The position numbers and the translations under genes are program-made. A stretch of 64,000 bases of DNA from Escherichia phage vB_EcoM_ESCO8: the sequence record OM386653.1, one strand, 5' to 3'. The notes under the pieces were generated by a model, which saw only the letters and a program-made list of their open reading frames with translations, ran no database searches and was not told the origin of the DNA. Shown here in pieces: positions 8,498 through 8,667 of the stretch (position 1 is its first letter; each line of letters opens with the position of its first letter).

Positions 8498-8667
8498 ATA
8501 AATTATCTTTAAAATAGCCAGTGTTCGCACCACTAACTATGAGGTATCGGTAAGATGGTGGGGGCCATCTGCCGAAAGTTTACTCTATTAAAGTAAGATG
8601 GTTGCAGCCATCCTTCCAAAAAGTTACACCAAGCAACTAAGAGCAACAAGCTACATTAAAGATAACT

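Follow-up and report, generated by a model that had tools for sequence, protein, structure and literature searches.

The window analysed here, a stretch of 64,000 nucleotides from Escherichia phage vB_EcoM_ESCO8 (OM386653.1), belongs to a phi92-like myovirus (Justusliebigvirus) whose best matches are the phages inny, alia and PATM. All tRNAs of its array (16/16) lie on the minus strand, and a 170-nt gap (8498-8667) is flanked by tRNA-Ser(GCU) (8753..8668) as the immediate upstream neighbour and by tRNA-Lys(UUU) (8497..8422) as the immediate downstream neighbour. The inter-tRNA cassette (8498-8667, minus strand) starts directly against the CCA of tRNA-Ser(GCU) and ends 2 nt short of tRNA-Lys(UUU), such that its 3' end would be set by RNase P cleavage at the 5' end of tRNA-Lys(UUU). 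The initial annotation had taken this interval for a spacer without tRNA between tRNA-Lys and tRNA-Ser(GCU), and this was confirmed, as ARAGORN detected no tRNA within 8498-8667, the Rfam tRNA model (RF00005) gave no match at E<=10 and a scan of the spacer against Rfam 15, at the gathering threshold and at E<=10, returned no match either. A tRNA, pseudo-tRNA or tmRNA (ARAGORN and Rfam) and self-cleaving ribozymes, riboswitches or other Rfam families (nothing at E<=10) were thus discarded as candidates, as was protein coding, the ORFs of the spacer being unconserved among relatives. In every GenBank record that we examined the spacer region is without annotation. Its plus strand holds two GATGG/CCATC hairpins, each with a 6-nt loop (8554-8569 and 8597-8612), both of which the initial annotation had recognised, albeit with the boundaries of loops and arms placed one base off.

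The RNA read from the minus strand of the spacer folds at -51.6 kcal/mol (z = -3.8; 0/200 shuffles were equally stable). In a MAFFT alignment of 12 sequences 97.4% of the cells are paired and six pairs show double changes, compared to 35-55% paired cells and 0-1 double-change pairs in slid controls of the same alignment. In a model-fitted alignment of 22 distinct sequences, which leans towards the covariance model, 97.2% of the cells are paired and 10/36 pairs are double-changed, values that 0/500 shuffles reached. Single-sequence thermodynamic folds likewise give a shape closed by a terminal stem, P1 (z = -3.6 to -6.6). Searching with the covariance model (R1) bore out a conserved structure in related phages, with the fold kept by compensatory changes: R1 matches the sense strand at 72-137 bits and the antisense strand at 17-37 bits, once per locus, and in the window it scores 103 bits at 8500-8667 on the minus strand versus 17 bits on the plus strand. 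Moreover, G.U exceeds A.C by 76:4 on the tRNA-sense strand. This strand-specific G.U excess and the strand preference of R1 assign the fold to the RNA of the tRNA-sense strand, and the spacer is a discrete, conserved and independently folding RNA element of that strand, which supports the view that it is not mere trailer junk. Elsewhere in the window R1 has a weak match (61995-62078, minus strand; 19 bits, E = 0.06) that is probably noise.

Several other roles for this structure were considered and rejected. An intrinsic terminator function of the third hairpin (hp3, see below) does not fit the T5-like, PBES02 and EF1-1 variants, in which the U-tract is missing, and a boxA-like antitermination motif (UGCUCUUA in the 5' part, with a likeness to CUCUUUAA in P1) is unconserved in relatives, P1 covarying as a helix. 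Kissing or covariation among the loops of hp1, hp2 and hp3 was discounted as well, since the loops occur in mosaic combinations of inconsistent complementarity, and a MITE-like mobile DNA with P1 as terminal repeats is contradicted by the strand-specific G.U pairs, which point to RNA.

In the window phage, P1 consists of a 5' arm (AGUUAUCUUUAAUG; 8654..8667, minus strand) that pairs with a 3' arm (UUUUAAAGAUAAUU; 8501..8514, minus strand), the latter being the 5' leader of tRNA-Lys. Pairs 5 and 7 of P1 vary between CG, GC, AU, UA and UG among phages, and the G.U at pair 2 is kept in 22/22 sequences. Next to the 3' arm lies hp3 (UAGUUAGUG-GUGCGAA-CACUGGCUA; 8515..8539, minus strand), a phage-specific hairpin with 100% of the cells paired, four double-changed pairs and conserved U.G pairs; Klebsiella phage 05F01 and Av-05 have other hp3 stems with the shape unchanged. 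The basic element of relatives measures approximately 115 nt and comprises an AU-rich P1, hp1 with a 7-nt loop, hp2 with a 6-nt loop, and hp3. The hp1 stem is near-invariant in phages and hence uninformative for covariation there, while hp2 shows compensatory variants, with GAUGG/CCAUC exchanged for AGUGG/CCACU or AAUGG/CCAUU, and CGG/CCG for CGA/UCG.

The window cassette carries the hp1-hp2 unit twice. Module 2 (8543..8598, minus strand) reproduces exactly, in antisense, the final part of a plasmid gene termed abi (see below); it is identical at 56/56 positions to the strand opposite abi in pRK1 (L066) and in a metagenome allele (L029), and it spans 2 nt of the 3'UTR, the stop codon (complement at 8594-8596) and the last 17 codons, GIGKMVGAICRKFTLLK. 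It includes hp1 (UUACU-UUAAUAG-AGUAA; 8580..8596, minus strand), the loop of which opens with UUAA and fits the YUNR pattern, and hp2 (CGG-ca-GAUGG-CCCCCA-CCAUC-uua-CCG; 8548..8574, minus strand), the first hairpin of the initial annotation, with a hypervariable 6-nt loop. Module 1 (8593..8643, minus strand) corresponds, with some divergence and in antisense, to the 3' end of a second abi allele family (C-terminus ..KMVAAIRRKITPSN*), 47/51 positions being identical, with a 1-nt indel and three mismatches, to the complement of the abi allele that encodes P0077 (L070). Its counterparts of the two hairpins are hp1' (AGUUGC-UUGGU-GUAACU; 8622..8638, minus strand), obtained by folding, and hp2' (GAUGG-CUGCAA-CCAUC; 8597..8612, minus strand), which is the second of the hairpins noted before. 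The two modules are fused at a common AUCUUAC inside a single P1 and with a single hp3. As judged from these matches, the twin hairpins are one abi segment taken in tandem from two allele families, and the idea of a simple internal repeat had to be given up.

By blastn, the 3' part of the spacer (approximately 100 nt) occurs in 184 phage records, with one element per genome and always in tRNA orientation. The carriers belong to Justusliebigvirus (phi92-like), Phapecoctavirus (phAPEC8-like), Vequintavirus (rV5-like), Certrevirus and Avunavirus (Av-05-like) and include approximately 23 T5-like siphoviruses, which are a minority of the T5-like phages. A pattern scan of IMG/VR yielded three loci only, all from close relatives. 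The element follows directly on the CCA of the preceding tRNA (in T5-like phages, on a promoter), and in most phages tRNA-Lys or tRNA-Tyr begins 0-15 nt beyond its end; LTH01 and A5-4 have their next tRNA approximately 170 nt further downstream. P1 is common to all phage copies, which argues for one capture event and makes the orientation a single observation. Among natural variants, phage EP57 (L012 580-642) has P1 and hp3 alone, the antisense core being deleted, which indicates that scaffold and core are separable. Av-05 (L008 601-819) and TH18 (L015 301-530) carry a 220-230-nt version with extra hairpins and longer abi homology; in Av-05 (90% over 81 nt), TH18 and LTH01 the second-allele-family type occurs on its own. 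Within Justusliebigvirus the upstream tRNA-Ser is 99-100% identical versus 78-98% for the 55-nt core, and this contrast between flank and core, along with the allele matches, is the pattern that would be expected if plasmid alleles had repeatedly replaced the core.

Over 51-82 nt, identity between the core (hp1-hp2) and the strand opposite the abi 3' end is 92-100%, and we verified this antisense orientation by comparing the model strand with the ORF strand. In addition to the match of the window (8598..8543) to E. coli W pRK1 (56/56), PaulScherrer (58/58) and UP17 (76/78) match a ColIb-type allele, and abi matches were found for EF1-1 (68/69), EC.P2 (67/69), the metagenomic Avunavirus L057 (80/82) and Klebsiella phage 05F01 (68/71). 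The homology of the phages is restricted to the abi 3' end. Within the core, which is free of indels, the loop and stem variants of hp2 and the loop variants of hp1 correspond one-to-one between phages and plasmids, with CCCCCA, CCUCCA, UGGCAG (with CCAUU), CGGUAA (with AGUGG/CCACU) and CUCUCA being the hp2 variants common to both. The hp2 loop is always 6 nt, that is, two codons, and the three common hp1 loops of phages (UUAAUAG, UUAGCAG and UUAGUAG) all read Leu-Leu in the abi frame; the hp1 loop of Klebsiella phage 05F01 (UAGAUAG) reads Leu-Ser and is not synonymous. The core variants of phages copy coding-compatible plasmid alleles, suggesting that the flow was from plasmid to phage.

Outside phages, a pattern scan of metagenome and genome contigs revealed 37 loci, most of them outside tRNA arrays (R1 50-60 bits). 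In complete E. coli genomes the element is present in 201/5426, on 199 plasmids and at 2 chromosomal places, and PLSDB has 460 records with the element, 418 of which are conjugative, the enterobacterial plasmids being mostly of approximately 100 kb. The single plasmid that was typed, pIFM3804, is IncI-gamma/K1, MOBP and MPF_I. On plasmids the element-sense strand is antisense to the end of a convergent ORF, covering its last 18-30 codons, its stop codon and the beginning of its 3'UTR. This ORF has 114 codons in 10/10 alleles compared and in most database homologues, is named "abortive infection protein" in RefSeq and belongs to a family that includes UniProt P18024 (ABI_ECOLX); compared by eye, the pIFM3804 allele reproduces residues 18 to 88 of P18024, an entry that presumably derives from ColIb, with which both its name and the IncI typing agree. 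No Pfam or NCBIfam family was found for the abi ORF and a PADLOC "2TM effector" match is weak (E = 0.0066). The Abi protein has a strongly hydrophobic centre (peak 19-aa Kyte-Doolittle mean of 2.68 at residues 48-66), is longer, at 114 aa, than classical type I toxins, and shows pN/pS values of 0.43-0.85.

When hosts that carry ColIb are infected by T5 or BF23, the ibf/abi locus aborts the infection, the membrane potential is lost, and a pre-early product of the phage acts as the trigger (PMC10644984). Although the phenotype has been described since the 1970s, the ibf/abi gene products and their mechanism are still undefined (PMC10644984). From the old database name, the 114-aa ORF would be the effector of this classical ColIb Abi phenotype. 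The abi gene is almost always convergent with a DUF4238 gene approximately 180 nt away (L051 2830-6487; L066, L067, L068, L070-L075), and in L051 it adjoins a PDC-S06/AAA_13 (PrrC-like) gene, such that the abi region within the IncI variable region looks like a defence island. A pair of genes, ibfA and ibfB, was named in the old genetics; the partner could be DUF4238.

The plasmid loci also have signs of an RNA of their own. In 20 distinct plasmid alleles, 7 of which were retrieved via the protein and so are free of DNA-pattern bias, TTGACA and a 17-nt spacing are invariant, as is TAGnnT except for one allele with TAAnnT; TAGnnT is the "GUAG" motif that is kept in phages. TTGACA-N17-TAGnnT is a promoter-like motif from which a transcript would start just before hp1. 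The plasmid hp1, hp2 and an upstream hairpin that has the -35 box in its loop covary (96.5% of the cells paired, 8/23 pairs double-changed, 0/500 shuffles reaching the observed values), with G.U versus A.C at 14:3, or 7:0 for hp1 and hp2 alone. Covariation and G.U bias together suggest that these structures were selected on an RNA antisense to abi. On the other hand, the -10 box has 3/6 consensus positions, the motif was not called in a generic promoter scan of the plasmid locus, no convincing terminator was found for the putative plasmid sRNA, and plasmid loci gave nothing credible against Rfam at the gathering threshold and at E<=10. Lower synonymous diversity in the overlapped abi codons was not found either (pS 0.34 versus 0.25-0.39 elsewhere). 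In the literature on small RNAs of T5, T4 and rV5 or on abi antisense RNA, we found no report of this element or of an abi RNA partner. Two conserved hairpins lie in the abi-DUF4238 intergenic region (L066 about 4990-5040 and equivalents): in a GC-rich one (GGCAGTGGCC...GACCACCGCC), probably the terminator of abi, the wobble pairs are those of the abi-sense strand, and a second one covaries on the opposite strand, its loop always being GTTGAC, the -35 box.

From the observed homology, orientation, RNA structure, allele correspondence and promoter motif, we infer that the cassette would be expressed, processed, pair in vivo and act on Abi, and we consider it reasonably probable, on comparative grounds, that it is a phage-made anti-abi antisense RNA, an antitoxin mimic. 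On the plasmid, a cis-antisense RNA of the same sense, with its -10 box just upstream of hp1, would keep abi silent in a type I-like manner. The phage would have copied this RNA and would express the copy from its strong tRNA operon: the spacer, co-transcribed with the phage tRNAs, would fold into the P1-closed cassette with a payload of one or two hp1-hp2 modules complementary to the 3' end of the abi mRNA, and RNase P together with tRNA 3'-end processing would release the RNA from the precursor. During infection, the phage RNA may then pair with the abi mRNA through the loops of hp1 and hp2, and either cleavage of the duplex or a block of productive translation would prevent cell suicide. 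The alleles differ from phage to phage, two being placed in tandem here, which is consistent with an allele-matching arms race.

This antisense reading draws on the conservation, the fold, the abi homology and the identity of the gene, on the allele correspondence and the core as a hot spot of diversity, on the promoter motif and covariation of the plasmid side, and on the fit of window module 1 to a second allele family. It also agrees with the situation of T5, which is aborted by ColIb, lacks an R1 match in the 49-kb region searched and has another leader at the homologous site. Several observations weigh against it: an antisense RNA that pairs with the 3' end of its target silences it less directly than one that covers the ribosome-binding site; T5-like phages have the element on DNA of the second transfer step, whereas the known Abi trigger is pre-early; the -10 box is weak, a terminator is missing and synonymous diversity is unreduced; module 1 has an indel and three mismatches; and a single capture event would make the orientation one observation. 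Some of the same facts have been read in reverse, with the phage RNA as trigger and the abi 3' end as a sensor of infection RNA, pairing activating or stabilising the abi mRNA. Complementarity and allele diversity would suit a sensing arms race too, but we think this reversal very improbable, given that T5 and BF23 trigger ColIb Abi, that T5 is without the element in the region searched, that the known trigger is a pre-early protein, that the plasmid has its own promoter motif for an RNA of the same sense and that the core variants suggest a flow from plasmid to phage.

Clearly less probable than the antisense RNA is a role within the tRNA operon, as a small stable RNA or a processing cassette, in which case the abi homology would be a relic of origin, P1 joining the upstream trailer to the downstream leader and the insert insulating tRNA folding or acting in trans on targets other than abi. 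In favour of this, tRNA ends or a promoter always adjoin the element, covariation is seen in the phage-specific P1 and hp3, T5 and T4 have annotated stable RNAs without a known function in such a setting, the closed-stem plan is shared with the T5 RNAIV cassette and the T5 tRNA-Tyr leader, and other spacers of the window fold with closing stems as well. Such an operon RNA leaves unexplained why the core is 92-100% identical to living abi alleles, why different alleles sit beside near-identical flanks and why two families occur in tandem; moreover, homology to T4 or T5 RNAs is lacking and EP57 separates the scaffold from the core. HNH endonuclease genes and mosaicism in these tRNA regions, and the deletion and expansion variants EP57, Av-05 and TH18, could also speak for functionless plasmid DNA that was captured by recombination into the tRNA region and spread with clusters rich in homing endonucleases. 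We regard neutral capture as unlikely, since the compensatory changes and 97% paired cells of the phage-specific stems indicate selection, the element is kept in about 180 genomes from several genera, and repeated allele replacement is unexpected for junk. Hardly any weight is given to a degenerate tRNA or a small-protein gene: the closing stem with three hairpins has a cloverleaf topology, but neither ARAGORN nor the Rfam tRNA model found anything at E<=10 and the loops are without T-loop or anticodon-loop signatures, and a 38-aa ORF starting with TTG (8533-8649, minus strand) is not preserved, relatives differing by indels and large insertions.

The initial annotation had likened the spacer to the small stable RNAs of T4-type tRNA clusters, and what remains of this analogy is a conserved folded element on the tRNA-sense strand in the same setting, but not a homologue of the RNAs of T4 or T5. 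Annotated in the T4 record are rnaC and rnaD, and in the T5 record eight "stable RNAs with unknown functions" in the tRNA region. R1 found nothing with default filters in the T4 region and in T5 20-69 kb (49 kb), and with filters off its best matches in the T5 tRNA region had 11.8-14.4 bits (E 0.1-0.4); these matches are not significant, and homology with T4 rnaC/rnaD or the T5 stable RNAs was therefore rejected. The T4 RNAs and those of T5, which include RNAI, RNAIII, RNAIV and RNA2H, resemble the cassette in their setting and strand, their size of 100-170 nt and in having no annotated function, and several T5 stable RNAs are closed by a terminal stem, as the cassette is. They differ in having tRNA-like ends or T-arms, which the cassette is missing, and for none of them has homology to a gene of a host or plasmid been reported. 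The T5 RNAIV cassette (L027 12828-12952, minus strand; 11.8 bits, E = 0.44) is like the phage element in plan only: its outer stem is AU-rich (11 bp), GUAGG/CCUAC and three hairpins are present, and both ends of the annotated RNA fall at the junction. At the phiLLS-type site, where the same promoter is followed by tRNA-Tyr, T5 has an unrelated leader of approximately 100 nt with a 19-bp closing stem (L027 15429-15530, minus strand). Cassettes closed by a stem would appear to occur generally in these tRNA regions and to be exchangeable.

As a precedent, pseudo-ToxI of phage PhiTE comes closest, an RNA that mimics a type III antitoxin and defeats ToxIN abortive infection (PMC3475682, PMC3594212). 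In both cases a non-coding phage RNA is homologous to the RNA of an Abi system, apparently through recombination with the defence locus, and here the phage RNA is homologous to the candidate regulatory RNA of such a locus, as befits an antitoxin mimic. ToxI, however, is a protein-binding repeat RNA (type III), whereas the cassette RNA is antisense to the toxin mRNA (type I-like) and, unlike pseudo-ToxI, is embedded in a tRNA operon, widespread in several genera and multi-allelic, its counter-defence role being putative.

Type I toxin-antitoxin systems with convergent antisense RNAs that overlap at the 3' end are known from B. subtilis (txpA/RatA and bsrG/SR4), and hok/sok excludes T4. The abi locus would share with them a gene for a hydrophobic, putative membrane protein, a candidate convergent 3'-overlapping antisense RNA with structured recognition hairpins and a link to phage exclusion, and the phage RNA is complementary to the abi 3' end at 56/56 to 80/82 positions, as a type I antitoxin is to its toxin mRNA. 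It departs from them in the length of Abi (114 aa, longer than typical toxins), in the antitoxin copy residing in a phage and in the plasmid antisense RNA, which is deduced from the conserved promoter motif and covariation alone. With abi/ibf of ColIb (IncI) the system has in common that the target family is named for that phenotype (P18024) and that the plasmids are conjugative; it differs in that the cassette is on the phage side and not in the defence, and in that the literature reports no abi RNA component.

We tentatively extend the antisense reading to a wider proposal, which may well turn out to be incorrect in part: the tRNA operons of virulent coliphages could be platforms for anti-defence antisense RNAs, the present cassette being a bivalent mimic that silences two abi allele families, and ColIb abortive infection could be a type I-like toxin-antitoxin system, made up of Abi and a cis-antisense RNA and perhaps DUF4238, that is engaged in an allele-matching arms race with phages. 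If true, phages would practise a natural and widespread antisense silencing of a defence gene, a counter-defence distinct both from inhibitor proteins and from the type III RNA mimic, of which a single case is known. It would also provide a molecular handle on ColIb/IncI abortive infection, with candidates for the effector ORF and for a cis-antisense regulator as well as a natural inhibitor, and would predict which E. coli and Salmonella bearing IncI plasmids can serve as hosts for therapeutic rV5-, phi92- and T5-like phages. Screening the spacers of phage tRNA arrays, including the T4 and T5 stable RNAs, against defence genes of hosts and plasmids is suggested as well.

A 99-nt spacer of the same array (7509-7607) had been deemed a similar element on account of an inverted repeat. 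The repeat (CGCTAGAG...CTCTAGCG) is present as described and the spacer has a closing stem of its own on folding, but the likeness ends there, as the spacer has no R1 match and, like the other spacers of the array, no match to plasmids, so that a similar plasmid origin for these other spacers was discarded. It corresponds to the first part of a 431-nt phi92 spacer that also holds gp113, which points to a deletion there in the window phage. This Gly to Gln spacer (minus strand) is identical to the first approximately 91 nt of the phi92 spacer (L004 2502-2932), in which gp113 is rIII-like, and the sequences that terminate it (GGTTCTTTTTAAG) and its phi92 counterpart (TTTAAAAGAGAATTT) are similar to the two arms of P1, which suggests a second P1-closed cassette that is deleted in this phage.

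Other parts of the array hold remnants and small genes. At 9089-9167 (minus strand) Rfam detects a tRNA (38.6 bits) that ARAGORN missed and that is listed as tRNA-Undet in the PATM record; it looks like an unusual or degenerate tRNA. The 145-nt Met to Ile spacer (6706-6850, minus strand), especially 6712-6788, has a weak tRNA-Sec match (22 bits) and a T-arm, GGGGGTTCGATTCC, and this remnant is probably a decayed tRNA gene. Small protein genes lie among the tRNAs at 7738-8160 and 8762-8962 (both minus strand); they are homologues of phi92 gp112 and gp111 and are flanked by promoter-like and terminator-like sequences, for example TTGACAAAGGGGCTAATAATATGTTAGAGT near 7690-7720.
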